A stretch of 64,000 nt of DNA from an uncultured Nitrososphaerota archaeon (GCA_963718895.1 CAVRAG010000004.1:1-64000), one strand, 5' to 3'; positions 1-64,000 are shown, counted from the first letter of the stretch. The notes: a model not told the origin generated them from the letters alone. A program made the numbers and translations.

Positions 1-2236
1 CGGCCGTCAGGAGCCTGGGGACGAATCCTTTCTCTGATGCCGGCTGAGAGAGATAGAAGGAATCTTTGGTCAAGCAATTGTGAACGACCCCGCCCTGAAG
101 CACATACGAATTGGCATCCTCGACCTCGAGATTCCAGACCTCGCCCGTGAACGATCGTTTGGAGACTCTTCTGACCGGGAACTCCAGGAATCCACCTTCG
201 AACCACATTGTACGGTACTCTTGACGGGATCTTGTCAGGTGCTGCGCTGGATGCACGATGGTGTTCATCTTCGTCATGTCGCACGATTTGATGTAGTACG
301 AGTGCCTGTGCCAAGTCCCGTCGCGTCCCCGATGTCGAGGAAGGTCGCTTACTGCAAATCGAACTCCCAAACGAAGAAGCGAGAGCTGAAGAAAGTTCCA
401 GAGTCCCTCCGAGACGGTCCCGTAAGTGAATACGTCCTGCGAGTTGCTTCCATCGCCTAGCCAGATACCCTTCAACAGGCTTCTTAGGTGATCATCAGGG
501 AGTGATGTCGCCCATGCTATCGGGACGCTCTTCTGCCATGATGTGTGGCCGAAAGTGGTTCCGAGGTACTCGGCAAGAGGCTTGCACAGCATCCGAGCGG
601 TCATTCCGTTTCCCACTCTCCCGTGGATCTTGACACCGTTGCCGAACGCCTTCGTGGCAATCGAGTCAAGGTCTTCCACGATGAACTCTTCTTTCTTATG
701 TAGCGCGAAGTTGATCTCGTTCTCCCAGATCGTTCCTTCAGCAACATAGAGCCCGAACAGGTACATCATCTCCGGTGTGGTGGCAATCTCTTGCCAAATC
801 CCTCGTCTGTGGTAATCATGGCTGAAGGGAACGGAAGGAATCTGTACGCCTCGCGGCTCAGGAATAGGAAGGCAGAGCACGTCCCCTTGTTCGATGTTGT
901 CGGCGCTGAGGAACTTCTGTTCCGAGGCGCCCTTCATGTTCGTCAGTTTCTTCTTGCCATTCGAATTGTAGAAACGTCGGCCCCTATGGATGCGCTTCCT
1001 GACGAGGACGGGATGCTCAGGCGTGCATTCTATGGGAAACGAGTAGAATCCCCTGCCCGCTATCTTCAGAAGCGGTCCACTGTACCTTCTCGTCAGGACC
1101 TTGGTCACTTTGCGATACTGACCATCATGCGCCAGGACCCTGTCGCCCGCGGTTATGCTGGATATTGCTCGTAGTCCACTCTTTGTCTGAACCTTCGCCC
1201 AGGGAGGCAGGCAAAAACCGCCCACTCCAGGGCCGGGGGTTAGCAGGTTCGTCTTTGGGTCTGTGCGAGTCGCCTCGATAACCCTGATGACGTCTACCCC
1301 TAAGGCCTCGCACGCGAGCGCGAGCTCGTTGGCCAGCGCTATGTTGACGTCGCGGTAGATGTTCAGGAACAGCTTGGCTGCCTCGGTGGTCTTAGGCCCG
1401 TCGAAGAGACGAATCGGGGCATCGAACGACCCGAAGAGCCCTGCTGCCGCGCGGCCGCTTCGCGAATCTATCCCCCCTATCATCTTCGACAGAGTCCGGA
1501 GCTCGAAGAGGGCGAGCCCCTCTATAGTGGTCTCGGGCACGTGGGCGAGACCGAAATCCCTCCCAGGGACAAGACCGGATTGCTCTTTGAGAATCCTGCC
1601 AACGACCTCCTCCGTGGTCCCGACAGAGACCGTGCTTCTGACTACGACCACCGAGCCCTTCTGTAGCCCTGCACCTATGTCCTTCGAGGCTGAGACCAGG
1701 GCACGCGTGTCGGGCCGCTTCTGGGAATCGATAGGCGTTCCTACTGTGATGATAATGAACCCTGAACGCTCCACCCCAGCAGAAGTGTCTGTGCTCAGTT
1801 CGAGGTTGCCTGACTTGAGGGCGAGCTTGAGGAGTTCCTCCATCTCGTGGGAGGACTCATGCCCCATCGCTGCGCTGTTCACACGGCTCGTGAGCCTGAC
1901 CGAACCTGAGGATATCTCGACCTTCCGCATGCAGCTCGGACAGAAGTTCTCGCGACCGACGGATAGGATGCGGACTCCGCAGTTGGGGCAGGTAACACCG
2001 AGGACCTTTGACGAGGGGAACAGGTTCTTGCTGTGCTCGACTATGGGAGATCGTCCGGCCCGAAGCTCGTCGAGGAACTCCTCGTTCTTGTCGCAGCCGA
2101 TGACCTTGGCGCCCTGATTGGCCAGCAGCAGGGCTAGGGGGAGACCGATGTGGCCCATCCCCACTATGCAGACGCGTATCTTGCCGCCCTTCAGCTGGGT
2201 TGTGATTCGATGAGCAGGCGTCTCAAGTAGGTTCAT
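1..2236 (-). CDS. Nucleotide-sugar dehydrogenase (UDP-Glc/UDP-GlcNAc/UDP-ManNAc dehydrogenase family), intein-containing; 3' end lies outside the window
   Basis: Translated by hand; absent from the ORF track because it has no stop in the window. Motifs: IVGMGHIGLP Rossmann motif, ITVGTP, VRSTVSVGTT, EAAKLFLNIYRDVNIALANE, and PGPGVGGF/CLTKD after intein removal. Confidence 0.93.
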   Translation of the reverse strand, partial: MNLLETPAHRITTQLKGGKIRVCIVGMGHIGLPLALLLANQGAKVIGCDKNEEFLDELRAGRSPIVEHSKNLFPSSKVLGVTCPNCGVRILSVGRENFCPSCMRKVEISSGSVRLTSRVNSAAMGHESSHEMEELLKLALKSGNLELSTDTSAGVERSGFIIITVGTPIDSQKRPDTRALVSASKDIGAGLQKGSVVVVRSTVSVGTTEEVVGRILKEQSGLVPGRDFGLAHVPETTIEGLALFELRTLSKMIGGIDSRSGRAAAGLFGSFDAPIRLFDGPKTTEAAKLFLNIYRDVNIALANELALACEALGVDVIRVIEATRTDPKTNLLTPGPGVGGFCLPPWAKVQTKSGLRAISSITAGDRVLAHDGQYRKVTKVLTRRYSGPLLKIAGRGFYSFPIECTPEHPVLVRKRIHRGRRFYNSNGKKKLTNMKGASEQKFLSADNIEQGDVLCLPIPEPRGVQIPSVPFSHDYHRRGIWQEIATTPEMMYLFGLYVAEGTIWENEINFALHKKEEFIVEDLDSIATKAFGNGVKIHGRVGNGMTARMLCKPLAEYLGTTFGHTSWQKSVPIAWATSLPDDHLRSLLKGIWLGDGSNSQDVFTYGTVSEGLWNFLQLSLLRLGVRFAVSDLPRHRGRDGTWHRHSYYIKSCDMTKMNTIVHPAQHLTRSRQEYRTMWFEGGFLEFPVRRVSKRSFTGEVWNLEVEDANSYVLQGGVVHNCLTKDSFYLSQPASEKGFVPRLLTA
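77..1213 (-). mobile_element. Intein (379 aa) with LAGLIDADG homing endonuclease
   Basis: In-frame 1137-nt insert. It starts CLPPWAKV, has block B CTPEHPVLV and endonuclease motifs LFGLYVAEG and LLKGIWLGDG, and ends VWNLEVEDANSYVLQGGVVHN followed by the extein Cys. Confidence 0.95.
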
Positions 2237-2445: not shown

Positions 2446-3509
2446 TTAGGCGGTGTGAATCTTGAGGCTTTGTCTTGACCTGACGAGGAGTGCCAGCAAG
2501 ACAGCGCCGATAGCGGCCACCATGATTGGTGATGCGCCGAACTCAGGCACGCTGTTGCTTGGGGGTATTCCGATTGGAGGTACTGTCGCTGTCGAGGGGA
2601 TGCTTATGACCTGGGCTGCCCACGTGAGGCAGTCGCCAGAGTTGCTGCCTATGCTTGCGCTGTCAGATGTCGCGCCCAATGTCTCGGGCACCGAGTATGT
2701 CTTGGTGTCTGATAGGCTACCGTAGCTCCACGTGGCGCTGGATGTCTTGGGGTCGCTTCCGGGGAAGGCGTTGCTGTCGATCGTTACGCCGTTGTACTCT
2801 GCAAAGTTGCTGGGTAGCTGGCCGTCTAGGACGAAGAATGTGGTCGTTGCGGTGGTAGCGTCGGCCGCTCCGTGGTTGAACACGCTCGTGAGTGGGTTTC
2901 CTGAGGCTGGCTCGGTGTACGCGCCTGTGTAGACGTAGATGTTGTTCGAGGTGGCGCCGGTCGTCACGACGACGAGGCTTGCCCCATCATCCAGAGGCGT
3001 ACCATATTCGGACCAGGGGTCGTCACCATTGGTGTATCCCGACGCAAAGCCGGAGACGGTGTTCGCGCCGTTCGTCACATAGGGTGTGACGTCGGCCGCG
3101 AAGATCCACATGTCACCGCCACCCCAGCAGGGGCTGGCGTCGTTGCTCTGGTAGGTGCCGGTTATCGCGTGGCCGTTTATCGCGGCCGCATGCTAGTCCG
3201 GTCGTGGTCGGGGTTGATTATGCCCCAGATCAGGTATGCGGCCACCACGGTCCCCGTGAATGACAGGGTTATGATGCCGGAACCTGTGTTCCTGAGGGCA
3301 GTTCCTGCTGCGGTGTATTGGTAGTCGCCACCAATCTGGAGGAGCGCGGTTGGGTTGAGTGGAGGATCTGGGCCGGGCACTAGGCCTGGAGGCCAGACTC
3401 CGTTCGAGTTTGTTGGGGATGCCGACGTCGGCGCGATTCGCACGACGAGGCACAACATGATGACTGCTGCGAAAGTCAGGGTCGAAAGACTCCGTACGTT
3501 CTTCTGCAT
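2446..3509 (-). CDS. Secreted PEF-CTERM surface protein 1 (one frameshift near 3180)
   Basis: ORF 3177..3509 supplies a signal peptide. ORF 2446..3111 ends VPEFGASPIMVAAIGAVLLALLVRSRQSLK (motif, TM helix, basic tail). Confidence 0.85.
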
Positions 3510-3534
3510 GCGCAGGGATTCGCTTGTGATTTGG

Positions 3535-3583
3535 TTTTAAGCATCGAGGAGCCCATCTTCATGGATATGAATCCTGAATTCAT
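3535..3583 (-). promoter_or_regulatory. TATA box plus tandem palindromic operator
   Basis: TTAAAA lies 25 nt before the ATG. Palindrome ATGAATCCTGAATTCAT (3567-3583) lies 26 nt from the TATA; a degenerate second box is at 3546-3562. Confidence 0.75.
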
Positions 3584-3726
3584 GTTACACTTTCCAGTCG
3601 TTTGCGCAAGTATTGGCTCGAATAGACCAAAACACTGCCATAATTTGGTCAATATTGAGGCAGATGCTCAGTCCTCACTTGTCGTTGACGGTAGTACGAG
3701 GTGCGAGACAAGAGGAAGTGCCGTGC

Positions 3727-4676
3727 CTATCTCTGGTTTTGTCGACGGGCGAAGTTCCTGATCACTTCGCGCAGGCCTTCCTCCAGCGAGAACCGCGGGG
3801 AGTATCCCAGCACGGTCCTCGCCTTGCCTATGTCAGCCAGGCTGTGACGAACGTCACCCTCCCTCGGGGGAGCGTGCTCTATGCCGAGATGGGGCTTTCC
3901 CATTATCTCCTCGATGGAGGTAGCGAGCCGGTTCAGGGACACCTGGGCGCCGCCGGCGACATTGAAGACCTCGCCGGGCCTGGGGTTCCCTCTCCAGGCT
4001 GAGGATGTTCGCGCTCACCGCGTCTTGCACGTAGGTGAAGTCCCTCGTCTGCTCGCCGTCTCCGAAGACTGATCGGGACTTGGTCATGGATGACCCTGTT
4101 CACGAAGGTCGGTATGACCCCGCTGTAGGGCCCGGGCTTCTGCCTGGGACCGTAGACGTTGAAGTACCTGAGGGAGACCGTGGGCAGGCCGTAGACGCTC
4201 GCGAAGACGCGGCAGTAGTTCTCCGCCGAGAGCTTGGAGACCGCGTAGGGCGAGATCGGCGACGTCTTCATGGTCTCGACCTTTGGCAAGGTCTCTGACT
4301 CGCCGTACACTGAGGACGACGATGCGAAAACGAACCGCTCGACCTTCGCGTCATTGGCCGCCATCAGGAGGTTGAGCGTCCCCCCGACGTTAACGGAGTT
4401 CGTCCGATTCGGGTCTTCGATGGAGCGTGTCACGCTGACAAGCGCTGCCTGGTGGATGATTGCGTCGTATCCCTTCACAGCCTCCTTGACGAACGCTTCG
4501 TCGCGGATATCGCCCCGGTGCATCCGAAGGTGAGCGTCGGTGGGAAGGTTGCTCTCCTCCCCGGTGGCGAAATCATCGAGAACGCCGACCTCGAGGCCGC
4601 GTGCAATCAGGGCGTCCACTATGTGGCTCCCGATGAATCCGGCGCCCCCGGTCACTAGGACCCTCGAGAACTTCAA
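3727..4676 (-). CDS. NAD-dependent epimerase/dehydratase (extended SDR), frameshifted
   Basis: TGGAGFIGSH, SSSSVYG, YAVSK, RYFNVYGPRQ, GDGEQTRDFTYV and REGDVRHS, spread over three ORF fragments. Confidence 0.92.
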
Positions 4677-4734
4677 CTTCGAATTCTCGGCCTTGGTACG
4701 GCGTTAATAATGATTCTTCGGAACTAGGGCGATC

Positions 4735-5265
4735 CTAGCGATCCTGTTGGGCTGCTCTCGATGGCCTCATTGCCAAGCGGACGGCGATGTAGAGGAGCGC
4801 GATGGAGGCCAGGTGTTCCGCCAGGTCAAGCTGATACCAATCCTGCTCGACGATCGTGCTAAGATCGGCCAGAGGGAGGTTCTGAGCGTAGCTCAGGACG
4901 AAGGCGGCCGCGGTCAGGAGTGCCACGCCGAAGACCTTCTCTCTTGTCAAAGAAGTGCCCTTCAAGGCCTCCCTCAACGCGAGACAGAGGAAGACGGCCG
5001 TCAGGACGTGAAGCAAGGCCTCCATGAAGAGATGCGGGCCAGCCGGATGGACTCGGGTGACCTCGGGCCACGTCAGCACGGAGTCGAAGTTCACGGGCGC
5101 ATCGTCGATGAGGGACCAGAAGAAGGCGAGGAAGGCAAAGATGGCGATCCTCTGCTTCGTCACGATGAGGACTGCCGAGCCGAAGACCAGGGGCAGCACG
5201 ACCCCTCCAAGAAGCGTGGTAATGTCGAAGGCTTGACTCTGGAAGACGTACCAGAACGAGACCAC
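4735..5265 (-). CDS. Hypothetical multi-pass membrane protein (start may extend to ~5330)
   Basis: 176-aa ORF with about five hydrophobic segments; the reading frame stays hydrophobic upstream. Confidence 0.65.
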   Translation of the reverse strand: MVSFWYVFQSQAFDITTLLGGVVLPLVFGSAVLIVTKQRIAIFAFLAFFWSLIDDAPVNFDSVLTWPEVTRVHPAGPHLFMEALLHVLTAVFLCLALREALKGTSLTREKVFGVALLTAAAFVLSYAQNLPLADLSTIVEQDWYQLDLAEHLASIALLYIAVRLAMRPSRAAQQDR

Positions 5266-5549
5266 TACGCCCAGTGACGCGGCTGTGATGGCCAGGACCT
5301 GATAGGCTATGCTATTGTTGCCCGTGATTCATTCCACCCTTTAACCCCAGCAGTCGTGCAAGCGGGCTTCCTCCACGTGTATGAACCTTGTCATGAAGCC
5401 TCATGACGCGGAGGACTCTTCACTTGGACTGATCTACCGGAAGTCTTCGAATGGCTCGACACCTAGTACTATTTGACGCCTTCCACTGAATCGGATGGTT
5501 CTTCCAAGATTTGGAGCGAATGTGAAAGCATCCAACTCGTCTGTCCCAG

Positions 5550-5590
5550 CAAAACAATGGAGGCCGCAGCCGGCTTTTGACCTGCTGCGG
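5550..5590 (-). terminator. Hairpin plus short U-tract after PEF-CTERM gene 2
   Basis: CCGCAGC (5564-5570) / GCTGCGG (5584-5590) stem, then TTGTTTTG on the minus strand. Confidence 0.5.
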
Positions 5591-5604
5591 GCTATTCCTT
5601 TCGT

Positions 5605-6168
5605 TTATCGCGTCGCTTGTGCTGCGAACTTGCTCTTGGCGATGAGCATGGCTGGTACGGCCAATGCCATCAGGATAGCAAGTCCGAACGGGAACTCTGG
5701 GACCCTAGGTGGAGGCTGACCTGAGAACAGGCTGAATGGCTCACACGCAGCTTTTGCTGCGGGATACCCGCCAGATCCTGTTCCGCTGTACTTTGCAACC
5801 CACACGTAGTTACCTGCGGTCAATCCGGTGGTCGAGAATGTTGCCGACTGGTATGTGGTCTTCAAGCTGGTCGTCACTGTGACGGCTGGTGAGGTATACT
5901 CCAGGGTTCCAGTTGGATTACCCGAGGTACACGTGCCGCTGTAGACGTAGAAGGTGATGGTTCCGTATGGGCCCCCGTCCGAGGTGAGCTGTAGAGTCGC
6001 CGTGTCGTATACGCCTGTCCCTATGGCTGCCGAGGTAGTGGAAGCAGTGGTGGTGAATGTCTGAACAGACCAGGCAAACGCCGGTGCCACAATGCCACTA
6101 ACTCCAATCAGCACAGAGATCACGCCCAGAGTAGCGAGCGTGACGTTCTTTCCTTTCATGTTCATCAA
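5605..6168 (-). CDS. Secreted PEF-CTERM surface protein 2 (Ig-like beta domain)
   Basis: Signal peptide ending PAFA, Thr/Ser/Gly-rich beta strands, C-terminal VPEFPFGLAILMALAVPAMLIAKSK. Confidence 0.9.
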   Translation of the reverse strand: MMNMKGKNVTLATLGVISVLIGVSGIVAPAFAWSVQTFTTTASTTSAAIGTGVYDTATLQLTSDGGPYGTITFYVYSGTCTSGNPTGTLEYTSPAVTVTTSLKTTYQSATFSTTGLTAGNYVWVAKYSGTGSGGYPAAKAACEPFSLFSGQPPPRVPEFPFGLAILMALAVPAMLIAKSKFAAQATR

Positions 6169-6190
6169 GGAATTTTGACCTTAAATACCC

Positions 6191-6240
6191 TATATATGGA
6201 ACGCGAAGCAGAGATTCATATTCATGGAGTCATGATTCAC
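6191..6240 (-). promoter_or_regulatory. TATA box plus tandem palindromic operator
   Basis: TATATAT at 6191-6197. Box ATGGAGTCATGATTCAC (6224-6240) is 26 nt away; second box GCGAAGCAGAGATTCAT is at 6203-6219. Confidence 0.7.
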
Positions 6241-6390
6241 ATTCTGGCCCCCAGAATCAGAACTTGGATGAACATTCGGCCCCGTCCTTTTGCTTATTCC
6301 AAGTCTCCAACTCGCTCGCGGTTTCGCTCAACGACGCTGCGAATCAGACGGTCGTCGACCTGGCGGGGGCGAATCTGTGCTTAGAACGGG

Positions 6391-8262
6391 TTACTTGTCT
6401 CTCGAGGATCGGACAATCCGGCGAGCAACAATCGCACCCACCATCATGGTGCCGACCAGGAACACGAGACTCGAGTCGCTCAACAAGAGCAACGGGCTCC
6501 CTGAGTTGTTTCGGTTATTCGTTTCCGACGTCTGGCAGGAGACCGGCTGTCCTAGAGTTCCCGAGAGACAGACGGTCGTCGTGACGGTCGTTGTCTGAGT
6601 TGTTGTCGTGGGCGCCTGAGTCGTGGTCACCGTCCCGATTGAAGTTACTGTCGTGGTGCTGGGCGGGGCGACGCTGGTCACTGTCGTGGTCACTCCGGTT
6701 CCGGCCAATGTTATGGTCGTTGTCACGCCAGGCAGGGTCACTGTGGATGTTGAGGTGGCAGTGCTGGTCTGATCCAAGGTGGAGGTCACGGTCATGGTTA
6801 GAGTAACTGACTGAACAGCGCTAGAGGTCACAGTGGTGGTGACGGTGGACGTCTGAGTTGTCGTAACAGGAGGTGGTATGCTCGTGATGGTAGTCGTGAT
6901 GGTAGTCGTGGTGGTGCTGCTCGCAGGAAGGGTTTGTGTCGAGGTCATCGTCGTCGTCTGTGTTACGGTCTGAGTGGTCGTGACCGGCGGAGATGTTGAC
7001 GTGACGGTAGTAGTCGTCGTGCTCCCAGGCAGTGTCTGGGTCGAGGTGGTCGTTGTCGTCTGGGTGACGGTTTGAGTGGTCGTCACTGGCGGGGAGGTTG
7101 AGGTAACCGTAGTCGTGGTAGTGCTCGCGGGAAGAGTCTGGGTGGAGGTCGCCGTCGAAGTGTGAGTCACGGTCTGGGTGGTGGTGACGGGCGGAGCTGT
7201 ACTCGTGACCGTAGTCGTGGTTGTCGTAGCCGGGAGGGTCTGGGTTGACGTGACCGTCGATGTGGTGGTGCTGCCCGGAAGAGTCGACGTTGAAGTGACC
7301 GTGGACGTCTGGGTCTGGGTCTGCGTCTGGGTTTGAGTTACCGTCTGGGTGGTCGTGCTACCAGGGGCTGTGGTCGTGCTCGTTACTGTCGTCGTAGTGG
7401 CCGGGAGAGTCGAGGTCACCGTCGACGTGATCGTCTGAGTCGAGGTCTGCGTGACCGTGCTGGTGACCGTGACGGTCACGGTGGGCGGCGCCATGCTGGT
7501 CGTAGAGCTCGTGGAGGATGTTGAGCTCGACCCCCAGAGCATGGTTCCAGCCGGCAAAGCGCTAACAGAGCCTCCGACGATTATCTCGTTGCTCTGGAGG
7601 TTAGAGTTCTGGGCGTTCCCCTGAACGCCCCAGGCCGTCCCGTAGGAGACGGCCGTCTGGACCGGGCCCCATAAGCCGGACTTCAGGGCCTGCATCGTGT
7701 CCGAGAACGTCACAGCGGGGAAGGAGAAGACGCTGGCCGCCTGCTCCTCTGAGAATGCCTGGACCGGATAACTGGAGCTGGAGGCGCTCGCGCCCATGTC
7801 GAAGGTGCCGAGGACCGTGCCATCGACGACGTAGGCCCAAGTCGTGTCGGTCTGGACATACATAGAGAATGCGTGGGAGCCCGTGGTGATGCTCCCCGTC
7901 CCTCCCGCGAGGATCGTCTGCGAGCCGAGGTTCCAGACCTGGTAGAAGGAGACCGGCGCGTCTCCTGAGCAGAGATAGTAGCCGACCTGGCCCCACTCGT
8001 CGTTGGGGAGTCCATCGGCTATCCAGAAGGCAAGGCATCCGGTCGTTGCGAAGTTGATAACTTGAATGTCGGACTGGACTCCCGTGTTAGGCAACGCAGA
8101 GGAGTCGCTGGATGAAGCGCCCACCCACCAGACCGAGCCGGAGGGAGGGCTGGCGGTGAAGGTCGTGGGCTGGGGTGTGGTCTTCAGTCCGAGCGTCACA
8201 GAGTTCAGCGAAAGGGCACCCCCCACGAAGATGAGAGCGAGCACAAAGTAGGCCCACCTCAT
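6391..8262 (-). CDS. Membrane-anchored surface glycoprotein: putative glutamic-peptidase-like head, Thr-rich stalk, C-terminal TM
   Basis: Intact 623-aa ORF with signal peptide, beta domain containing WGQVGYY and FSEE, about 300 aa of Thr-rich sequence, and TM plus RRIVRSSRDK tail. Confidence 0.85.
   Translation of the reverse strand: MRWAYFVLALIFVGGALSLNSVTLGLKTTPQPTTFTASPPSGSVWWVGASSSDSSALPNTGVQSDIQVINFATTGCLAFWIADGLPNDEWGQVGYYLCSGDAPVSFYQVWNLGSQTILAGGTGSITTGSHAFSMYVQTDTTWAYVVDGTVLGTFDMGASASSSSYPVQAFSEEQAASVFSFPAVTFSDTMQALKSGLWGPVQTAVSYGTAWGVQGNAQNSNLQSNEIIVGGSVSALPAGTMLWGSSSTSSTSSTTSMAPPTVTVTVTSTVTQTSTQTITSTVTSTLPATTTTVTSTTTAPGSTTTQTVTQTQTQTQTQTSTVTSTSTLPGSTTTSTVTSTQTLPATTTTTTVTSTAPPVTTTQTVTHTSTATSTQTLPASTTTTTVTSTSPPVTTTQTVTQTTTTTSTQTLPGSTTTTTVTSTSPPVTTTQTVTQTTTMTSTQTLPASSTTTTTITTTITSIPPPVTTTQTSTVTTTVTSSAVQSVTLTMTVTSTLDQTSTATSTSTVTLPGVTTTITLAGTGVTTTVTSVAPPSTTTVTSIGTVTTTQAPTTTTQTTTVTTTVCLSGTLGQPVSCQTSETNNRNNSGSPLLLLSDSSLVFLVGTMMVGAIVARRIVRSSRDK
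6590..7520 (-). repeat. Thr-rich intragenic tandem repeats (34 aa / 102 bp unit)
   Basis: Unit PPVTTTQTVTQTTTTTSTQTLPGSTTTTTVTSTS occurs about three times clearly, with degenerate flanking copies. Confidence 0.85.
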
Positions 8263-8616
8263 GCTAGGCTCACACTCCCAACCTGCATGCTAAGACAGGA
8301 ACTGGCCTCGTGCAGAGCACAAAAGCCGGATAATGCATGATTATTGGCCTCTTTGTGAATTTTTCTTAGAGGAAGCCTTCGCAGGCTTCGGGCCGGTCTC
8401 TCCGTTCTCAGGCGGGTCGTAGGTGAGGGCGAGCACAGGATCCTCTCCCAGGCCGGAAGTGAGCGGACGTCGGTGGTGACGTTTGAATCTTGGTCCGTGC
8501 TGGAGAAGGTCTGGGAGTCTGCCTGAACCTGCATTGTGCGCCTGGACATGGTAAGAAGCGCCCAAGACCTGGTAGATATATCTTTGGAATATGCATGAAT
8601 ACAGTGTAACATCATC

Positions 8617-11278
8617 ATGCTTTCACTGATAGCTTGGTGGCCGAGCGCCGCACTGTCCTTAAATAATCCTCATCGTAGTCATGTAAAGTCTAACGTGCAC
8701 CACTCCCCAGGCTCGAGTCTGAACCTTCATCCCAGGCAACTCTTGAACCGAAGGCTATCGATACGGTCTTGTCTATGCATCCTCGCTGCGGTCCTAATCT
8801 TCTTGGGGGCCCTGGCAGCTTCCTTTCCTCTGGCTAGCGGGATTGGGGGGATGTCGTTAGATGGGAGCGCGAAGAACAGTTGTGGGTATGTGACCGCCTG
8901 TTCGGTCACGCTGACGACCAGCCAACCTTCGGACGTCATAATCGTAGGATGCGACTGCCTGCCGGCGGGTGCCTCGTTCTCGGTGAGCGACACGGCCGGC
9001 CTGACATTCCACCCTCGAACGGCGCAGTTGGGCATCGGAGGGAGTCAGTTCATCCAGACCTGGTATGCGGTGGCGCCGGCGGCTGTCACGGCGGACAGCA
9101 TATCGGTGCAGACTCCATCCACAGGCGAGACATGGTATGGAGTGATAGCGTTCGCCGTTTCGGGCGCGAACACGGCCAGTCCTTTCGATTCGAATCCGTC
9201 GGTGCCCAGGGCGCAGGCTAACATCGACTGTCCCGGCGGCGACCCGTGCAACACGGGCGTCTCCACGAGCGGCCCTGACTTCGTCTTCGAGTTCGCCGGG
9301 GACACCGGAAGCAGGCTCCAGACACCAGGCACTGGACTTACGCTGATCCAAGCGGGCACTTCCGGCCAGGATGCATATGCCCAGTACGAGGTGACTTCGG
9401 GTGGGCTCTCGGCCGCGACGCTGTCGTTCGGATCCTCACAGGGGAGTGACTTTGGCGCTGTGACGGACGCCCTGGTTCCAGCAGCCACCACCACCTCGAG
9501 CACGTCAACGTCCTCGATCACCACCCTAGGTGAGACTCGACACTACCACGGTGACCCCTCCATCCATCGACGGCAGCGCCAAGAACGGGTGCGGCTACGT
9601 GACTGCATGCACCCTATCTCTGTCAACCTCTCATTCCTCTGATGTCATCATAGTGGGTTGTGATTGTCTGCCGGCGGGTGCCTCGTTCTCGGTGAGCGAC
9701 ACGGCCGGCCTGACATTCCTCCCTCGAACGGCGCAGTTGGGCATCGGAGGGCGGCAATTCATCGAAACGTGGTATGCCCTGGCGTCGATGCCCCTGTCCG
9801 GGGACAGAATCTCCGTCCTTACGCCGGCGACCGGTGAGACTTGGTACGGAGTTGTCGCGTTCGGCGTGTCCGGAGCGAACCTTCAGGTCCCGTTTGACCC
9901 CAATCCCAATCTACCATTACATCAGGCAAACATCAACTGCCCCGGATCTGACCCGTGCAACACTGGTGTATCGACGAGCGACGCAAACGACTTCGTCTTC
10001 CAGTTCGGCGGGGACACCGGCGGAAGTCCCCAGACAGCGGGGCCGGATTTGCACTGATTCAAGACGAGACATCTGGACAGAGTGCCTACATGCAAGTACG
10101 AGACCGCCTCTGCGCCTCTGTCTTCGGTGAATCTCGCCGTTTGGAACCTCCCAGGGACACGACTTTGGGGTCATTGCGGACGCAATCCAGCCCGAGATCT
10201 TCCACTTCCACAACTAGCACCGGGTCTTCGTCCTCATCATCGACGTCGACATTCAGCACGACCTCCTCTTCCACGACCTCGTCGTCGCCGCCATTCATAG
10301 ACGGCTCCTACTGGAATGCGACGGTCAACTGTGGGGTCGCTGGCGACACCAGCTGTTCAGCTATCTTGACGACGAGATTCTCACCTGACCTGGTAGTAGT
10401 GTTCGGTCAAACAGAGTCCCTGCAGTTTGCCAGCTGCTCCGGTCTGGCGGCGCCCTCACTGTCCGGCGTGACGGACGCCTCTGGACTCACGTGGCACCTG
10501 AGGACCACGGTGACTTCTGCATCGACGCCTGCGAGCGACGGATGGTGTTACCAGTTCCATCTCGAGGAGTGGTATGCGAGACCCAACTCCACCCTGACGG
10601 GCGACACAATACAGGATTCACGTAGCCGCAGGATTGACATCGACTCAGCACCTGGGCCTCCTCGCCTTCGGGGTAGCCAACATCAACCAGCTCCATCCGT
10701 ACGACGCTAACCCGAACGCCAGCTGCACAGGAACCGGGACTTCGACGACGTTCTCCTGTGAGGTGTCCACAAGCAGCCCTGACGATCTGATTGTCGGAGG
10801 TCCGGACTTCTTCTTTGGAGCGTTCAGTTTCGGGACGGGCTATCAGACTGTCTCCCCCTACTTCGCCCCCGATTGCACCATCCAGGTCGATGTCTCTTGC
10901 TCCGAATACCAGGCGGTGGGGTCGGCTGAGACGGGCTTTGCGGTGTCCTACACTCAGGCGACGAACGCGATCTGGTGTCTGATAGGCGATTCCATACAGG
11001 GAAGCGGGGTGTCCTCCTCAATGTCTTCCAGTTCTTCGACTTCAAGCCGTGCAAGTTCTACCAGTGCGGGTGGGTCAGCCAGTCGGCGGCTAGGCTCTCG
11101 AACGGAGAGCTTCCACCCGCCGAATATCGGCATGATGGGCACAATCCAGGTTGTCAAACTCGCCGCAGCCAACAGCCAGCGCCTGCCGTTCTGGGTTGCA
11201 GACGGACTTCGGGCTCCTTCTGGGGTCAGAACGGTTACTAGCCAGACTCCGAAGATTGCGACCGCGGGCGCGAATTAA
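8617..11278 (+). CDS. Secreted protein with three copies of the ~210-aa repeat domain joined by Ser/Thr linkers (frameshifted; true start may be ~8695)
   Basis: ORFs 8617..9642, 9530..10057, 10082..10300, 9955..10710 and 10634..11278 join into signal peptide plus three homologous domains. Confidence 0.8.
8857..9477 (+). repeat. ~210-aa extracellular repeat domain, copy A
   Basis: LDGSAKNSCG...SDVIIVGC...TWYA...AFAVSGANTASPFDSNP...CNTGVST...DFGAVTDAL. Confidence 0.85.
9565..10188 (+). repeat. Repeat domain, copy B
   Basis: IDGSAKNGCG...AFGVSGANLQVPFDPNP...DFGVIADAI. Confidence 0.85.
10297..10996 (+). repeat. Repeat domain, copy C (divergent)
   Basis: IDGS...DLVVVF...DASGLTWHLR...EEWYA...AFGVANINQLHPYDANP...VSTSSPDDLIVG...LIGDSI. 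Confidence 0.75.
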
Positions 11279-11308
11279 TAAGACCCGGGTTTTGGCATCC
11301 GCTCTCGT

Positions 11309-12631
11309 ATGAGAGTCTGGATTCCCATCCTGGTGCTCGGGGTCATTGGCCTCATCACCGGGGGAGTCCTAGTGATTACGCATTTGCACCGCACAGTCGG
11401 GCTGGGCGGGATAGGGCTCGGTGCGCTTCTCATCCTGATAGGCCTGGGAGGAGGTGTTCCTGAGAGGGAGACCCGTGAGAGTCGAAGACAGGAAGACTGC
11501 CGTCCAGACAGGACAACGGTCACAGGCTCGAAAGGCTATCATTGCTGTATTGGTGGTTATCCTCATCGGTGTTGGAACGTTCTACGGGACGACATACCTT
11601 ACGGGGCTCCAGTCCGGAGGGCAACCTCCGCCTACCGGAAACTCTGGGCAGAGCTCGCAACAGACCAGCGTCGTGACGAGCAACCCTAGCAGCACAACCG
11701 CTTCCGTCTCCGGATCGATAACCACCTTCCAACCAAGCACAACCTCCAGCAGCACCGCCGTCTCCCATACGACCACCAGCACAACCATCAGCACCTCCAC
11801 TCAGAGCGGCTCAGGCAGCGGCACGGCCAGTAGCACTTCCAGCACCACCGCCACGAGCAGCGTGAGCACCTTGACTGGCACGAGTTCAACATCCCAACAG
11901 ACCCAATCTCTCAGCCAGAGTACGACGACATCGAGTGATTGCCTTGCCTCGACCAAATCCCTTGACGGCTCAGCGATAAACTATAACGCATCCGGCACTT
12001 CTGGAGTCGTTTCTCTTACGACGCAAAGGTCCTCGGACGTGATAGTCGTCTTTGTCTCCGCGGTCACTAATCCGGAGGGGAACAAGACCACCCCGCCCGC
12101 TGTTACGCGAATCCAAGATGGCACAGGTTCTCTCTCGTTCCATGACAGAGCGTCCTTCGTGACGCCTGGTAGCGACTCTGGTGGCAACAAGTTCTCAGAG
12201 GAAGAGTGGTACGCGATCGCTCCGGTCCCTCTGGCCAATGACCCCATCACAGTTACCCTGGCGTCCAAGACGGGGGTCCTCACGATTATCGCCTTCGCGG
12301 TGTCCGGTGCTAACACCAATTCTCCATTCGATCCGAACCTTCCGGTCCGGTCGGGGTGGAGGGGACCACCCAGGGAACGATATCTGCCGCAGTCTCGACC
12401 GACTGTTCGAGCGACCTGATCGTCGGGGGGGCGATTGACGTTAATCCGCAACTGGGAACTGGTCAGGGCTACACGTTGATACAATCGGACGGCGGCATCT
12501 CACAGGCGCAGAGCATAGTCGCCGAATACATGCTGGTTTCTGCTCCCCAGGCAAAACTAGAAGTGTCGTTCACAAGCGTGTCCCAGCCCTTTACGTACAC
12601 CTGGCTCATAATCGCCGACGCGTTCAACTAG
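11309..12631 (+). CDS. Membrane protein: three N-terminal TM helices, Ser/Thr stalk, C-terminal repeat domain (frameshifted)
   Basis: Joined from ORFs 11309..11689, 11454..12419 and 12356..12631. Confidence 0.8.
11961..12628 (+). repeat. Repeat domain, copy D (divergent)
   Basis: LDGSA...SDVIVVF...EEWYA...AFAVSGANTNSPFDPN...VSTDCSSDLIVG...IIADAF. Confidence 0.8.
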
Positions 12632-12995
12632 AGGAAGCTGCTGCACGCATCTGTAACCTCTCCTAGACAACCCTTCAGGTGGATCGCGTTTCGTTTGCCT
12701 CTCCCTCCTTGAGCCGAGCCAAGGCCTCCTAGCTCACTCAGATGGTCTGAATACAGGGCGAGTGAGCCATGGAAACACACCCATTTCGAATCCCGAAACT
12801 TCTCGTGAATGAAGACTCCCCGGTAGCGAGCAGGATCTCTCAAGGGCTGGCAGAACCCGCTTCCCATCCCGGCCGGGTCACGGCGGGAGAGGGTACAATC
12901 GACGCGGCTCTGTCCCAACAGGACCTGGCTGATGTCAGCCGAAAGAGGTACTAGGGTCTAGCCTTGGAATCTAAAGGGCTTCAGGAACTTAGATC

Positions 12996-13038
12996 AGAAA
13001 AACAGATGGCAGCAGTGTAGTTGTGACTTACACTGCTG
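12996..13038 (-). terminator. Hairpin plus U-tract after the PQF-CTERM gene
   Basis: CAGCAGTGTA/TACACTGCTG stem (13010-13038) overlapping the stop codon, then TCTGTTTTTCT, the same 11-mer as at 2401-2411. Confidence 0.65.
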
Positions 13039-13660
13039 TACCGACTGTGGGCGCAATCTGCGGGAGACTCTTCTTCCGCAAGAAGAGGAGTCCTACCGCG
13101 CCGAGCACCACAGCTAGGCCCGTTCCGACAACCGCGAACTGGGGCACAGTCGCTGTGACTGTGAGTGACGCTATCTCAGTGTACGAACCGCCACACTTCA
13201 TCTCTGTACCGACCTGGGAGCATGCGTAGATGGTCAGCGTCTCCTGGCCGTTTGTGGGAGTTACCGTCGATGGGGCGGTAAGTGACAGCGTCATTGTTGA
13301 GGGTGACCCATACCCTGCTCCTTCACAGGTGCCCGATGGGCATGTGCTCACGGTCCCTGATGCGGGAGTAAAGGTCCAGCTCCATCCGTTGTCGGTGCCT
13401 GAGTTTGAGCTGCAACCGGTTCCTATTGGGCAGACGTAGTAGTGCATTGTCGTACCACTGGGAGCGTTGCTTGCGTAGAACTCGAAGTTCGCGGTCCCCG
13501 TGCTTCCAGGACCAGTCAGGGCTATTACGTTACCTACGGAACAGCCACTCACGCATTGTAGTTGTCCAGTGTATGTTGTCGCTGCCATTGCGGTTGGCAG
13601 CACCATGAGAGCGAACATCGCTCCAACGGACGCCAGTACAGCCAGCTTCCTCAGTTGCAT
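13028..13660 (-). CDS. Secreted Cys-rich surface protein with variant PEF-CTERM (VPQF) sorting signal
   Basis: Signal peptide, eight Cys in four close pairs, C-terminal VPQFAVVGTGLAVVLGAVGLLFLRKK. Confidence 0.85.
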   Translation of the reverse strand: MQLRKLAVLASVGAMFALMVLPTAMAATTYTGQLQCVSGCSVGNVIALTGPGSTGTANFEFYASNAPSGTTMHYYVCPIGTGCSSNSGTDNGWSWTFTPASGTVSTCPSGTCEGAGYGSPSTMTLSLTAPSTVTPTNGQETLTIYACSQVGTEMKCGGSYTEIASLTVTATVPQFAVVGTGLAVVLGAVGLLFLRKKSLPQIAPTVGTAV

Positions 13661-13683
13661 GACTGTGGCTTAGCGTGGGTCGG

Positions 13684-13732
13684 TTATAAGGCCTAGGAAG
13701 CCGAAATCAATGGACATGAATTTGAAATTCAC
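13684..13732 (-). promoter_or_regulatory. TATA box plus tandem palindromic operator
   Basis: TTATAA (13684-13689) lies 23 nt before the ATG. ATGAATTTGAAATTCAC (13716-13732) lies 26 nt from the TATA; a degenerate second box is at 13695-13711. Confidence 0.75.
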
Positions 13733-13981
13733 GTCGGATTTGGAGGGATAATCCACCAGAAAATGGGCTGTTTCGGACCTCTTCAGGGAGCCTAAGCTCA
13801 TGGCATCCCCCGTTAGAGGCGGTCGCCGCAAGCACATTTCGATAGTTCTGGAAGGGCGCTTATATGGATTGCGCCGACAGCGGACCCCTGGCCCATGGCC
13901 TTGAGAGGGACTCTCCAGAAAAGTACAGGTCAGATCAGACCAGAAATTTTTAATTACGCCTGACAGATTCCATCAGAATCG

Positions 13982-14912
13982 TTGAAGTCGGGACTAACCA
14001 CCGCTATTGACTGGCGCAGGATGTCTCGCCCCAACGCATACCTTGTGGCGTTAGTGGTAGCGTTCCTGATTCCCATTGCGATCCCCGGAGTCGGGATCGA
14101 CTTCACGTATTTCTTCATCTTCATCATCGTCTTCTTTGCCTGGTTGATAATGAAGTGGGAGAGCTTCGAGGGCCTCACAAACAAGAGCACGCTCTGGGAG
14201 ACGGTCATCGGGGTGGGCGGGGTCGTAGCAGTCTACGCGTACAAGGCAGCCTCGGCCACACGCCTGGGACTACTCGATATGGTGATCATCTTCGGGGCGC
14301 TGGCGGTCGCATTCTTCGGGATCAGGTCCTACAAGCTCTTCTGGGTTCCCGCGGCCTACGGGGTCGTTCTTCTGCTCGGCTATCAGGTCGAGAACGACAT
14401 ACCGAACTACGTCGTCTTGCAGGACTGGATGGCCGGGGTCATGGCGTCGGCGATGAGCGTGCTTGGGATACCGTCGGTCGCCTCGGGCCACCTCGTCGCT
14501 GTGAATTCCAATTCAAGCTCGCCGCTCCTTCTGGACGTAGCCAGCGACTGCACCGGGAATCCAGGGCGTTCTGGCGTTCGGGCTCCTGGGGAGCATGGCT
14601 CTGATCGACGTCAAGGCGAAGCTCTCGAGGGTAATTCCGCTACTTGCGATAGGTTTCGTCGGTGTCTTCCTGATCAACATCCTGAGGCTGCTGGTCGTCT
14701 TCCTGTCATTCGATTTCCTTGGCATCTCCATTGGAAACACCGTTCACGTCTATGCAGGGTACACCCTCTTCATAATCTGGGTTCTGGTCTTCTGGGGTCT
14801 CGCCTTCAAGTACCTGTCTCCCAAACCGGCGACCGTGGTCACCCCTGTCGTACCTCCAGAGCAGCAGCCCGGTCTAGTCATTGAGACCTCCTGCAAGACT
14901 CCATTATTGTAA
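13982..14912 (+). CDS. Archaeosortase/exosortase family transpeptidase (one frameshift near 14555)
   Basis: About eight TM helices, with catalytic-triad motifs VASDCTG, INILRL and VHVYAG across ORFs 13982..14884 and 14595..14912. Confidence 0.9.
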
Positions 14913-16178: not shown

Positions 16179-17247
16179 CTAGGCCGCAACCAGAAGCAGC
16201 GCGACCAGCAGGGCCGCAAAAGAGGACCCGAGCATCAAAGACATAAGCACGGGCGAGCTCCATACATCAATGAAGAGCGTCCAGAGCAAGACCTGTCCCT
16301 ACGGGATTGACACGGGATTTACCCCCTCGGGGAACAGGCGGTTGAGTTCCTGGGGGTTAAGATCGTCCAGCGTCATGTTCTTCCGGTACAGCCTGAAGAT
16401 GAAAGTGAAGATCACGGCGAGGTTGGTCGGATGGAGCCACGCTCCGAGGCTGTAGACCCACATCAGGATGAGGCCGAGCAGGAACCACTCGAAGAAGGCA
16501 GTCGCCGTGAGTGGCGCCGACGCAAACCCGCCCGGGACCAACCCCTCCAGAAATGAGCCAGACGAAGGCGAAGGCGGAGGCCCCCGAGGCGCACTTCCAA
16601 AAAGCGCAGGGTCCCACAGCGAAAGCGAGTAGACCCAGAAGAACCTATAGCCGCGGGCGACCCTCAGCTTCCTGTCGAGTACCTGTTGACCGCCAGCCGC
16701 AGGGCAACTTCGTGGTCAACCAGCAATGTTCTTCGCCGAGACTAGGTACCTCATTACCTCAAGGAACTCGTCTTCGGAGAGGTCACTCAGCTCGCTCCTT
16801 AAGGTGTCCCATGGGAACAGAGGGTCCCCATCTCCGACCAGCCGCCCATCCTGGAGATACGTGGGGCTCTATCTTGGCTTTGAGAGCGGGCGGGAGGTCT
16901 ACACTCACATCCCAGCACAGGACGTAGAAGACCGTCCCGCCAGGGAGGGGGTGCCTCTCGACGACCCCGGCCTTGACGAGGGGCTTGAGGTTGTAGATTA
17001 CTGCGGCAGGTGTTTGTATCCGACGGCTGCCGACATCTGAGTCGGTGTCATGGCTTTCTTCTGTCTTAGTTCGGTGAAAGGGACCTCTTCCGGGGGAGTC
17101 ACTGAACGAGTTCACGAGGGTGCCTCCGTGCAGGATTTGGAAAGTTCGACCCTCGAAGTAGCCGCTGTACCCTTTCTTCAGCAGACGGGCCAGTTTGAGG
17201 CCGCCCCCGAGGTCGAGGTCGCTTCCGCTCATCTGGAGAACCTCCAT
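16179..17247 (-). CDS. Putative membrane-anchored transcription regulator (ArsR-like wHTH plus C-terminal TM helices), frameshifted
   Basis: Reconstruction gives ELRQKKAMTPTQMSAAVGYKHLPAVIYNLKPLVKAGVVERH...VFYVL, followed by several hydrophobic segments. Confidence 0.6.
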
Positions 17248-52564: not shown

Positions 52565-53196
52565 CGTCTTGATTCTCCAGCCTAGAGGAATGGAGGATGG
52601 TAGCTCCCCGGGACATAGTCGAACGGTTGCTTCTTCCTCTCGCCGATGACCTTGGCCGGATTGCCACCGACGACGCTGTAGGCGGGGACATCCTTGGTGA
52701 CGACGGCCCCGGCAGCGACGACTGCCCCCTCTCCTATTGTCACTCCGGCCAGCACGATCGCGTTGGTGGCAATCCACGCCCAGTCCTCGATCGTTATCGG
52801 CTCATACTTTGCCTCGAAGCTTCGGCGAGTTTACGTCGTGCTTGGCCGTTATTATCACGGCCCCGTCTGAGACGTTGACGTTTCTTCCCTATCTTGACCC
52901 CTCCTGTGCAGTACAAGGCTGGCCCTCCCCACGAAGCTCCCGTCTCCCAGCTCGAGCTCGTTCGGGCTCCCCAGGTAGACTCCTCGGCGGATCACGCAGC
53001 CCTTGCCGATCTTCATGCCGATCCTGCGGTACAGGTAGAGCCTCAGTCTCAGGCCGTGAAGCCGACCGATGTTGTATGCGAGTTTGGTTGCAAGGTACGA
53101 ATGCTTCGTGTTCCGGACTCGGGGAGGAGCGACGGCCGTGCCGATTCCCGTGCCGGTAGGTCGACCGGGCGGGTCCAGCCTCACGGTCGGATTCAC
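52560..53196 (-). CDS. Hexapeptide-repeat (LbH) sugar O-acyltransferase (frameshifted)
   Basis: [58 protein letters not shown]. Confidence 0.88.
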
Positions 53197-63531: not shown

Positions 63532-63581
63532 ATGAAGTTCAGAACCACAAGCATGAATCTCAGCCTTCACTAGCCTTAAAT
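63532..63581 (+). promoter_or_regulatory. Fourth tandem-operator plus TATA promoter, facing the plus strand
   Basis: ATGAAGTTCAGAACCAC - 4 nt - ATGAATCTCAGCCTTCAC - 5 nt - TTAAAT; the same layout as the three PEF-CTERM promoters with one extra base. Confidence 0.6.
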
Positions 63582-63606
63582 CGGAAAAAACGCCACTATC
63601 ACAACT

Positions 63607-63672
63607 GGGTGTGTGGGGGCTTAGGAAACTGCCCTCGTGACCGTTGAGGTCTGGGGGCATTTCCGCACACCC
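63607..63672 (+). ncRNA. Candidate small structured RNA (long hairpin)
   Basis: Starts 25 nt after the TATA. Pairings GGGUGUGU/GCACACCC, GGAAA/UUUCC, UGCCCUC/GGGGGCA and GACC/GGUC. Two G-U pairs work only on the plus strand. No plus-strand ORF longer than 12 codons starts here. Confidence 0.5.
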
Positions 63673-63689: not shown

Positions 63690-64000
63690 TCAAGAGAAGA
63701 GTCTTTCCCTGAAGAGTTTGTAGTCCTGCAGGACCTTCAGACCGTCGCTCGTCGCCTGATAGTACTTCCCGCCGAGCGTCGCCTCCATGCTGATCAGTCC
63801 GCTCCGCTCCAGGTCGTCGACTATCGTCTTGAGCTCGGTGTAGGAGATGTTGGCGGCCTTCATGATGTGGGTGGTCCTCAGAGGCCTTAGGGAGGTGGCC
63901 TGGATTATGTCTATCCGGATCTCCATCTTCGACCTCCTTCTGAGGGCCGCCTCCTCGCGGGGCGCCTCGTAGAGTCCCCTGATCTCGTCGATTATGAGCT
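63690..64000 (-). CDS. Archaeal winged helix-turn-helix (HTH_45-type) domain protein, 5' partial
   Basis: RRSKMEIRIDII...TTHIMKAANISY...L...GLI...YQATSDG; the frame stays open to the window edge. Confidence 0.85.
   Translation of the reverse strand, partial: LIIDEIRGLYEAPREEAALRRRSKMEIRIDIIQATSLRPLRTTHIMKAANISYTELKTIVDDLERSGLISMEATLGGKYYQATSDGLKVLQDYKLFRERLFS

Follow-up and report, generated by a model that had tools for sequence, protein, structure and literature searches.

A tandem palindromic promoter module upstream of putative archaeosortase-substrate genes and a small structured RNA in uncultured Thaumarchaeota

The stretch of DNA analysed here (hereafter the window) comprises the first 64,000 nucleotides (nt) of contig C4 in the assembly of an uncultured Nitrososphaerota archaeon (C4:1-64000 of assembly G000; 3.13 Mb in 11 contigs, 59% G+C, with a listed completeness of 80.5% and a listed contamination of 5.4%). 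We infer from its archaeosortase sequence, and from a paper on the group (PMC10640624), that the host belongs to, or is closely related to, those Group I.1c Thaumarchaeota that do not oxidise ammonia (Gagatemarchaeaceae). The window forms an island of surface and glycosylation genes, among them genes for glycosyltransferases and epimerases, for a UDP-glucose dehydrogenase and for large secreted proteins, together with an exosortase-family gene. Three of its genes (genes 1, 2 and 3 in Table 1) encode secreted proteins with a PEF- or PQF-CTERM sorting tail, and a first-pass annotation of the window had proposed that the three share a tandem palindromic operator, RTGAAT-N5-ATTCAY, at a fixed distance from the TATA box and form a dedicated regulon of sortase-anchored surface proteins. 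Here we describe this promoter module in the host genome and in its relatives, a small RNA (sRNA) that also carries it, and a candidate regulator. Open reading frames (ORFs) are crude calls of our own, and TATA elements, transcription factor B recognition elements (BRE) and start sites were assigned from sequence alone.

Genes 1, 2 and 3 are all encoded on the minus strand. In the direction of the genes, the module consists of a 17-bp palindrome (box 1), 4 nt, a degenerate 17-bp second box (box 2), 5 nt and a TATA-like octamer, 51 bp in all, and is followed after 21-23 nt by the ATG. The consensus of box 1 is ATGAAT-N5-ATTCAT, and about 22 nt separate the TATA element from the start codon of a leaderless gene or from the 5' end of the sRNA. 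Box 1 is ATGAATCCTGAATTCAT before gene 1, ATGGAGTCATGATTCAC before gene 2 and ATGAATTTGAAATTCAC before gene 3, at the positions where the first-pass annotation had placed it, and the gap between it and the TATA-like octamer (TTAAAACC, ATATATAG and TTATAACC, respectively) is exactly 26 nt in all three promoters, as had also been claimed. The degenerate second box, lying 4 nt downstream of the first and giving a 21-bp period, was likewise found in each of them; box 2 of the gene 2 promoter, taken by itself, scores 14.6 bits with the box matrix. Two of the gene starts given earlier, 3509 and 13660, stand, and the other falls at 6165/6168. Additional weaker matches to the motif that had been pointed out at about 5371, 8610 and 28990 could not be upheld, all of them staying below 11 bits with the box matrix and looking like single half-sites by eye.

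Gene 1 proved to be a PEF gene as annotated, but not an intact reading frame: a 110-aa (amino acid) ORF with the signal peptide and a 221-aa PEF-tailed ORF together make up the gene, whereas its orthologs are intact (354 aa in L009 and 349 aa in L036). The box and the architecture upstream of these intact orthologs are identical to those of gene 1. The gene 3 promoter sits in an intergenic region that it has in common with the divergent archaeosortase gene, and the same layout is seen in two other genomes, G011 and G103 (L034, L040). Near the right-hand end of the window a fourth module, with the TATA-like element TTAAATCG, is found on the plus strand; its box 2 is one base longer than in the closest genomes, G001 and G011, and its low score is due to this extra base. 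The base may be one more indel of the assembly.

Table 1. Positions of the genes, promoter modules and split genes discussed in the text (window coordinates unless a contig is named; R1 is the covariance model described in the text)
Feature	Position	Strand	Description
Gene 1	2446..3509	-	Secreted PEF-CTERM protein; frameshift, signal-peptide part 3177-3509, PEF-tailed part 2446-3111/3189; TIGR03024 E 0.006
Gene 1 promoter	3533..3583	-	Box 1 3583-3567, box 2 3562-3546, TATA-like 3540-3533; 54.7 bits
Gene 2	5605..6165	-	186 aa, secreted, VPEF tail, transmembrane (TM) helix, basic end; weak Big_3_5 match; TIGR03024 E 0.12
Gene 2 promoter	6190..6240	-	Box 1 6240-6224 (weak half-site), box 2 6219-6203, TATA-like 6197-6190; 51.3 bits
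Gene 3	13028..13660	-	210 aa, secreted, VPQF tail, layout as in gene 2; paralogs on C2 and C7 (90-97% identity)
Gene 3 promoter	13682..13732	-	Box 1 13732-13716, box 2 13711-13695, TATA-like 13689-13682; 63.5 bits
Exosortase/archaeosortase gene	13982..14912	+	Frameshifted, 13982-14566 and 14547-14912; Pfam Exosortase_EpsH E 2.9e-8
Fourth window module	63532..63583	+	Box 1 63532-63548, box 2 63553-63570, TATA-like 63576-63583; E 0.004 (R1)
Small RNA	63607..63672	+	66 nt, structured; begins 23 nt downstream of the TATA octamer and is convergent with the wHTH gene
Candidate regulator, 3' end	63690..64000	-	HTH_45 C-terminus; gene runs past the window to C4:65027; 445 aa
Split genes	2446-3509, 13982-14912, 34517-35670, 49070-50156, 51423-52777; C6:271-1132, C8:808638-812424, C8:868151-869658		Orthologs intact where checked

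In the 3.13-Mb genome, RTGAAT-N5-ATTCAY has 7 exact matches, whereas about 0.16 would be expected from the frequency of the half-site (1408 on both strands). When the same half-sites were placed at spacings of 0-15 other than 5, only 0-2 matches were obtained, and inverted or direct arrangements gave 0-3. A chance origin of the boxes is excluded, and the genome-wide enrichment on which the earlier proposal depended is there: the motif lies far over background and its distance to TATA is fixed. A composite position matrix of 51 bp, built from 10 sites, finds 12 sites at 49-64 bits genome-wide, and the next in rank are reverse-strand echoes of at most 26 bits. Because 10 of the 12 sites are the training set, this ranking is partly circular, and independent support is given by the number of exact matches, by the control with other spacings and by the comparison across genomes.

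One exact match, at C3:36523, was rejected as a PEF box, since it is part of a longer palindrome placed between a TATA-like sequence and the start of a TetR-family gene, and belongs to a different operator. That palindrome, of the type ATGAATGA-N-TCATTCAT (C3:36519-36539), is again found next to TetR genes in four related genomes (L007, L010, L013 and L014), three of which are negative for the PEF module. It is probably TetR's own operator, resembling RTGAAT-N5-ATTCAY only accidentally. Single-box matches elsewhere (C8:921376, C8:652760 and others) are inside coding frames or come without box 2 and TATA, and were taken as chance.

To collect sorting tails, we searched all stop-to-stop frames of at least 60 aa with a regular expression for C-termini in which P[EQ]F is followed by a hydrophobic stretch and then a basic residue; 14 frames were obtained, 13 of them credible. 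The full module stands upstream of 11 of these 13 PEF/PQF-CTERM genes, namely genes 1, 2 and 3, the gene 3 paralogs of contigs C2 and C7, and those with their ends at C6:1132, C8:66620, C8:77458, C8:808638, C8:847216 and C8:1417016. With the curated tail models, TIGR03024 (PEF-CTERM) reaches 12.6-16.7 bits (cut-off 23) and TIGR04296 (PEFG-CTERM) 14.8 bits (cut-off 25). The archaeosortase of the window is closest to proteins of a Nitrososphaerales archaeon (86% identity) and of Candidatus Gagatemarchaeum stordalenia (81%); its intact ortholog passes TIGR04178, the general signature of exosortases and archaeosortases (41.3 bits, cut-off 23), and stays below the cut-off of the archaeosortase C equivalog TIGR03762 (26 bits, cut-off 100). 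Judging by these scores, the tails and the sortase appear to be a PEF-like variant rather than members of a curated family.

Two further elements were seen beside these genes. At C8:868080-868184, before a PEF gene that lacks the module, a direct repeat, CTACACATGC, occurs twice just upstream of a TATA-like CACATAACC, and may serve another kind of control. The module at C8:926323-926373 (plus strand), an orphan although both of its boxes are strong, is found just past the 3' end of a convergent gene for a 384-aa membrane protein, the C-terminus of which (SFQF, a hydrophobic helix and RRRPRG) resembles a variant sorting tail.

For comparison with other genomes we used 97 genomes of the family, all of them metagenome-assembled genomes (MAGs) and mutually related. 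Across 18 genomes of the same genus there are 0-4 copies of the exact pattern per genome and none of the reversed control pattern, and the same-genus matches keep the whole architecture, with a PEF/PQF-tailed ORF behind. Exact matches in other families of the order (L001-L003, L016-L021) show neither the architecture nor a tail-bearing ORF and were rejected. A sequence-only covariance model made from a 61-bp alignment of the 12 sites (R1; cut-off E <= 0.01) matches 32 of the 97 genomes, spread over 9 of 10 genera; a genome has as many as 10 matches, often clustered. All 44 matches of at least 48 nt, from 52 loci of other genomes, are without internal gap relative to R1, so the spacings of 4 and 5 nt are invariant across genera.

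For each of the 29 best loci from other genomes, we assessed which ORF of at least 60 aa comes first downstream of the top-scoring site. In 12 cases it is complete and ends in a PxF-TM-basic tail, and in 5 more it starts with a signal peptide and runs off the locus; the remaining loci have the sRNA (2), a UDP-glucose dehydrogenase (1), or an unclear arrangement (short or split frames, contig ends) behind the site. The module is thus conserved, free of indels, upstream of both orthologous and non-orthologous PEF-tailed genes in other genera, which was the conservation that the first-pass annotation had led one to look for. In one genome of another genus, the gene immediately behind a 29-bit module with two good boxes is UDP-glucose dehydrogenase-like and not PEF-tailed (L060, G053:C63, minus strand), and the reach of the regulon may extend to glycosylation enzymes.

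Recent duplication of the genes, or a promoter cassette spread by recombination without any dedicated factor, could also make promoters similar. The gene 3 site and its counterparts on C2 and C7, three of the 12, were in fact clearly duplicated along with their genes. On C2, a contig of 12.9 kb, positions 10246-12092 repeat window positions 13028-14884, promoter included, with 96-97% protein identity for gene 3 and about 82-83% for the sortase; this copy may stem from another strain whose DNA was binned with the host's and not be a true paralog, in which case the module count would be 10 of 12. The nine other sites, however, precede unrelated proteins. BLASTP among the 13 PEF proteins gives C-terminal matches of 23-107 residues (mostly 25-40) and, besides these, the gene 3 trio, so that the proteins are alike in the tail only, as the first-pass annotation had said. 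Only the boxes, the TATA element and a few flanking positions are conserved in the 61-bp alignment, the spacers vary, and the pattern recurs across genera. Since the proteins share just the tail (the trio aside) and the sequence between the boxes is unconserved, the motif is not a trace of recent duplication, in agreement with the earlier view, and we regard this explanation as very improbable.

An intact ortholog of the archaeosortase (E < 1e-80) is present in 19 of the 97 genomes, and 18 of these 19 are motif-positive, while only 1 of the 65 motif-negative genomes has one (both 18, motif only 14, archaeosortase only 1, neither 64). The distribution of the motif over the genomes therefore tracks the archaeosortase, which the first-pass annotation would lead one to expect. 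Several complete or near-complete genomes have neither the module nor the archaeosortase and, with the overlap of 18 of 19, this indicates that the sorting system and its promoter module are an accessory trait gained or lost as a unit. The match of the profiles is inexact, 14 motif-positive genomes being without a detected ortholog of the sortase and 8 without one of the candidate regulator described below.

The conserved neighbours of the archaeosortase in 16 loci compared are a gene-3-like protein, an NAD epimerase, UDP-glucose dehydrogenases, a GT1 glycosyltransferase, two multi-TM families and large surface proteins, and there is no DNA-binding protein among them. Orthologs of gene 3 adjoin the archaeosortase in 5 loci. 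The two multi-TM families are small multi-pass membrane proteins of no known family, which lie beside the archaeosortase in 8 and 5 loci (L064-L078); one has the motif WVYELxNW and the other FLAYFWxxxDDAPVxFDS, and the window copy of the latter is at 4735-5265 (minus strand).

As candidate regulators, the first-pass annotation had named three winged helix-turn-helix (wHTH) domains of the window. Two of them, at 16179-17247 and 55696-55900, gave no Pfam family at E values up to 1-5 in the frames tried and were dropped, and the one at the right-hand end of the window was retained. This domain is the C-terminus of a 445-aa protein in which Pfam finds DUF354 at residues 13-348 (E 5e-32) and HTH_45 at residues 364-441 (E 1.5e-12; 47.8 bits, gathering threshold 25.5); the NCBIfam model Sso10a_fam matches it at E 3.7e-12 with 46 bits, below the cut-off of 60. 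With a 78-aa wHTH query (E < 1e-20, at least 55% identity; frames mostly of 450-750 aa, three shorter), we found orthologs in 25 of the 97 genomes, of which all but G107 are motif-positive; that is, 24 of the 32 motif-positive genomes have one and 1 of the 65 motif-negative genomes (both 24, motif only 8, wHTH only 1, neither 64). Weaker matches (E > 1e-10, identity of 40% or less) come from small stand-alone paralogs that are present everywhere. By our own reading of the matches, each of the 24 genomes has at least one motif match besides the one adjoining the wHTH gene, so the association between motif and wHTH protein is not made by the neighbouring module alone.

The DUF354-wHTH family comprises at least 120 clusters at 66-94% identity, all with DUF354 and HTH_45, and its members are named 'DUF354 domain-containing' or 'predicted glycosyltransferase/predicted transcriptional regulator' in the databases, with no functional name. 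A PDB search by sequence with the candidate gave no match. In an AlphaFold (AF2) model with a predicted local distance difference test score (pLDDT) of 83.5, the N-terminal 350 residues have as their best Foldseek matches UDP-GlcNAc 2-epimerases and GT-B transferases (E about 1e-13), and this GT-B fold superposes on 3beo, 1f6d, 6vlb and others with target-normalised TM values of 0.6-0.7. Prediction of a homodimer of residues 352-445 scored 0.41, against a mark of 0.42. Pfam and NCBIfam scans of the candidate found no Lrp/AsnC domain, and the Pfam TrmB match to the wHTH domain was just at E 0.077. The wHTH gene lies in an operon: the stop codon of a Glycos_transf_4 (GT4) gene (E 5e-32), a family that includes dolichyl-phosphate sugar-1-phosphate transferases, is 5 nt before its start, and further upstream is an ORF with an N-terminal G-x-G-x-R that looks sugar nucleotidyltransferase-like by eye. 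A literature search for DUF354 returned unrelated DUF354x families; a paper on Agl24 makes no mention of DUF354.

The fourth module of the window faces the wHTH gene, and behind it lies the sRNA. Among 25 wHTH loci, which represent 24 genomes as G072 supplies two, a convergent module of at least 15 bits is found just past the stop codon of the wHTH gene in 23, the end of TATA being 95-115 nt from the stop; the exceptions are L084, with a gap of 236 nt, and L097, with no good module (0.3 bits). The homologous module site scores 15.7-46.1 bits in 23 of the 24 related loci, again with L097 as the exception. A conserved sequence, GGGTGTGTGGGGG ... GCACACCC, begins 22-26 nt after the TATA octamer, where transcription is expected to start. 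The minimum free energy of the window sRNA is -38.9 kcal/mol (z -5.35), compared with -28.2 kcal/mol (z -3.29) for the reverse strand, and that of a second species is -33.7 compared with -27.6 kcal/mol. All 25 copies fold, at -29 to -47 kcal/mol, with a closing helix in common and a variable inner hairpin. In the 10-bp closing helix, 91.9% of the cells are paired and 4 pairs have changes on both sides, values that none of 500 shuffles reached, and slid controls pair at 35-70%. One position is U-G in 20 sequences and the next is G-U in 10, and neither could pair if the other strand were transcribed; for this reason we place the RNA on the strand of the module and not in the 3' untranslated region of the regulator.

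The sRNA is not a tRNA, a tRNA scan being negative, and Rfam 15 holds no family for it, the sole match (E 0.34) being to an unrelated long non-coding RNA model. A covariance model (R2) finds it in 22 of the 97 genomes, all with the wHTH gene (both 22, wHTH only 3, sRNA only 0, neither 72). Extra copies away from the wHTH gene, each with an R1 match directly upstream, are found at G103:C2:628854 and on G095:C37, G099:C97 and G001:C25. In the sRNA promoters the proximal box is a near-perfect palindrome and the distal box is weaker, whereas the protein-coding targets show the opposite. Duplex energies between the sRNA and the 5' ends of the 13 PEF genes were not outliers against 1200 other gene starts, and the best duplex, at the 5.6th percentile, was with a gene without the module.

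Genes split into two overlapping frames are common in the assembly, including the archaeosortase, an Epimerase_2 gene, GT1 genes, gene 1 and three further PEF genes. We take these splits as probable indel errors of an assembly that seems prone to them. At the left-hand end of the window (2-2236, minus strand) lies a UDP-glucose/GDP-mannose dehydrogenase gene with an intein inside (Hint, Intein_splicing and LAGLIDADG_3 matches); it follows gene 1 in the same orientation after 210 nt, and the two may be co-transcribed.

These comparisons show that the module marks predicted archaeosortase-substrate genes of the host and of related genomes, together with the conserved 66-nt RNA. We favour, with slightly better than even confidence, a dedicated regulon for archaeosortase substrates in which tandem dimers of the DUF354-wHTH protein would bind beside BRE and TATA and probably activate. 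The regulon inferred in the first-pass annotation is strengthened by the fixed position of the module relative to TATA, its presence before 11 of 13 PEF genes, its conservation in other genera and its tracking of the archaeosortase. Each 6-N5-6 palindrome would bind a dimer of one winged-helix factor, and since the boxes are 21 bp (two helical turns) apart the two dimers would occupy one face of the DNA. The factor would be the DUF354-wHTH protein, because it is the sole DNA-binding-domain protein so far found to co-occur with the module and because a copy of the module lies alongside its gene. The proximal dimer, ending 5 bp from TATA, would then probably touch TFB and TBP on the BRE and TATA and help to recruit both. 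Archaeal activators are known to act at sites upstream of the promoter elements, and activation is favoured because the strongest site of the protein-coding targets lies wholly in this zone. Occupancy of the two boxes may be graded and cooperative, since the strong box is distal in surface-protein genes and proximal in the RNA promoters.

The GT-B domain may sense or make a nucleotide-sugar or another glycosylation intermediate, which would tie the expression of surface proteins to glycosylation capacity. Such a role is suggested by the epimerase-like character of the domain and by its operon partners, the GT4 gene and the nucleotidyltransferase-like ORF. The sRNA promoter faces the regulator operon head-on, from which feedback may be speculated. 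If all this is combined, the protein would be a new archaeal one-component regulator that uses its GT-B domain to read, or to convert, an intermediate of the nucleotide-sugar or lipid-linked glycan kind, and its wHTH domain to switch on the whole set of archaeosortase substrates through the tandem boxes, while the 66-nt RNA closes a feedback loop through transcriptional interference, antisense pairing or protein binding; we offer this combined picture tentatively and think it unlikely to hold in full.

Several observations weigh against activation by this factor, and some of them suit other explanations. Box 2 ends merely 5 nt upstream of the TATA octamer, in the spot expected for the BRE, which it would overlap, and the same module and factor could equally fit a repressor operator in which the proximal dimer would occlude the BRE and block TFB until a nucleotide-sugar ligand released the genes. 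The TATA octamers are near consensus and the 5 nt before them look generic (A at -5/-4 is about as frequent in the PEF promoters as in 161 generic leaderless-type promoters), so that the promoters are possibly strong alone; the two sets show no clear difference that would point to a weak BRE in need of an activator. The near-perfect proximal box of the sRNA promoters would also suit a repressor. On the other hand, it is the distal box, 26 nt from TATA, that is strongest in the protein-coding targets, where occlusion would be impossible, and the binding sites of most archaeal repressors described so far overlap TATA/BRE or the start site and are not wholly upstream. We consider repression unlikely, though a serious alternative, and the TATA and BRE assignments on which both kinds of control are argued are read from the DNA letters only.

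Other points concern the regulon and the identity of its factor. Two of the 13 PEF-tailed genes, with starts near C8:868184 and C8:1508762, do not have the module, and at the strong site C8:926323 the TATA (TTGGGATC) is poor and no gene could be recognised downstream. The phylogenetic profile was made for one candidate regulator, the DUF354-wHTH protein, and since kin genomes are not independent, Fisher statistics of co-occurrence overstate the support. Moreover, co-occurrence fits a regulator and a part of the same accessory module alike, and the archaeosortase co-occurs too. The module may thus be a real site of another factor, with the DUF354-wHTH protein being an enzyme or regulator of the same accessory surface and glycosylation module that merely adjoins a regulated sRNA. 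With the nearly equal co-occurrence of the archaeosortase (18 of 19), a shared profile does not single out the wHTH protein, and 8 of the 32 motif-positive genomes, 62-94% complete and four of them with a single weak motif match, are without a detected wHTH ortholog. The mean column identity of the DUF354 domain is 74%, as for an enzyme, and the NCBIfam match is to Sso10a chromatin proteins, which are not known to be sequence-specific. Yet the number of missing orthologs is of the size expected from the incompleteness of MAGs, the module adjoins the wHTH gene in 23 of 25 loci, and neither the 16 archaeosortase neighbourhoods nor the two other wHTH candidates of the window, which are without domain support, supplied a competing DNA-binding protein. 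Another factor seems to us quite unlikely.

If the dedicated regulon is real, it would be an archaeal counterpart of the bacterial PEP-CTERM/PrsR regulon made of entirely different parts; the conserved DUF354-wHTH family would gain a testable function, and an undescribed small RNA family would join the circuit. For uncultured Thaumarchaeota of acid soil and peat, a sequence-defined regulon is among the few handles on surface remodelling, and the fixed geometry of the module, with two helical turns between the boxes and 5 nt to TATA, would make a clean in vitro system for archaeal promoter-proximal regulation. A search of the literature outside subscription journals turned up no study of the promoters of archaeosortase substrates or of their regulators.

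In geometry, the module is similar to the upstream activating sites of Ptr2 (Lrp family, Methanocaldococcus) and TFB-RF1 (Pyrococcus), which reportedly recruit TBP or TFB from such positions, in that tandem dimer-type palindromes lie directly upstream of BRE/TATA. Unlike Ptr2, the candidate here does not belong to Lrp/AsnC, the strict spacings of 4 and 5 nt and the 17-bp 6-N5-6 boxes are particular to this module, and activation is a prediction. TrmB-family regulators sense sugars, and the glycolytic motif of Thermococcales is TATCAC-N5-GTGATA; a 6-N5-6 inverted repeat and a winged helix fused to a (here putative) sugar-binding domain are thus common to both systems, whereas the candidate has a C-terminal HTH_45 and an N-terminal GT-B/DUF354 domain and its half-site differs. 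The C-terminal 80 residues match HTH_45 and Sso10a_fam, as in Sso10a/HTH_45 proteins, but they are fused to a 350-aa GT-B domain, and the role proposed for them is sequence-specific regulation, not chromatin binding.

The closest analogue in logic is the PEP-CTERM/exosortase regulon of Proteobacteria, in which a cis-site precedes 99 of 167 PEP-CTERM genes and PrsR, PrsK and PrsT were recognised from its phylogenetic profile (Haft et al. 2006, PMC1569441). The two systems are alike in having one cis-site before most genes with the sorting signal (11 of 13 in our host), a site profile that parallels regulator genes, an exopolysaccharide or glycosylation context and a sortase of the same superfamily. 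The bacterial regulon uses a sigma-54 (-24/-12) promoter, an NtrC-type response regulator and a histidine kinase, whereas here a TATA promoter is preceded by tandem palindromes abutting the BRE. The archaeal candidate would be a one-component protein of GT-B and wHTH domains, an sRNA is a member of the set, and no proteins except the sortase are homologous between the two. In promoter type and regulator the two systems differ wholly.

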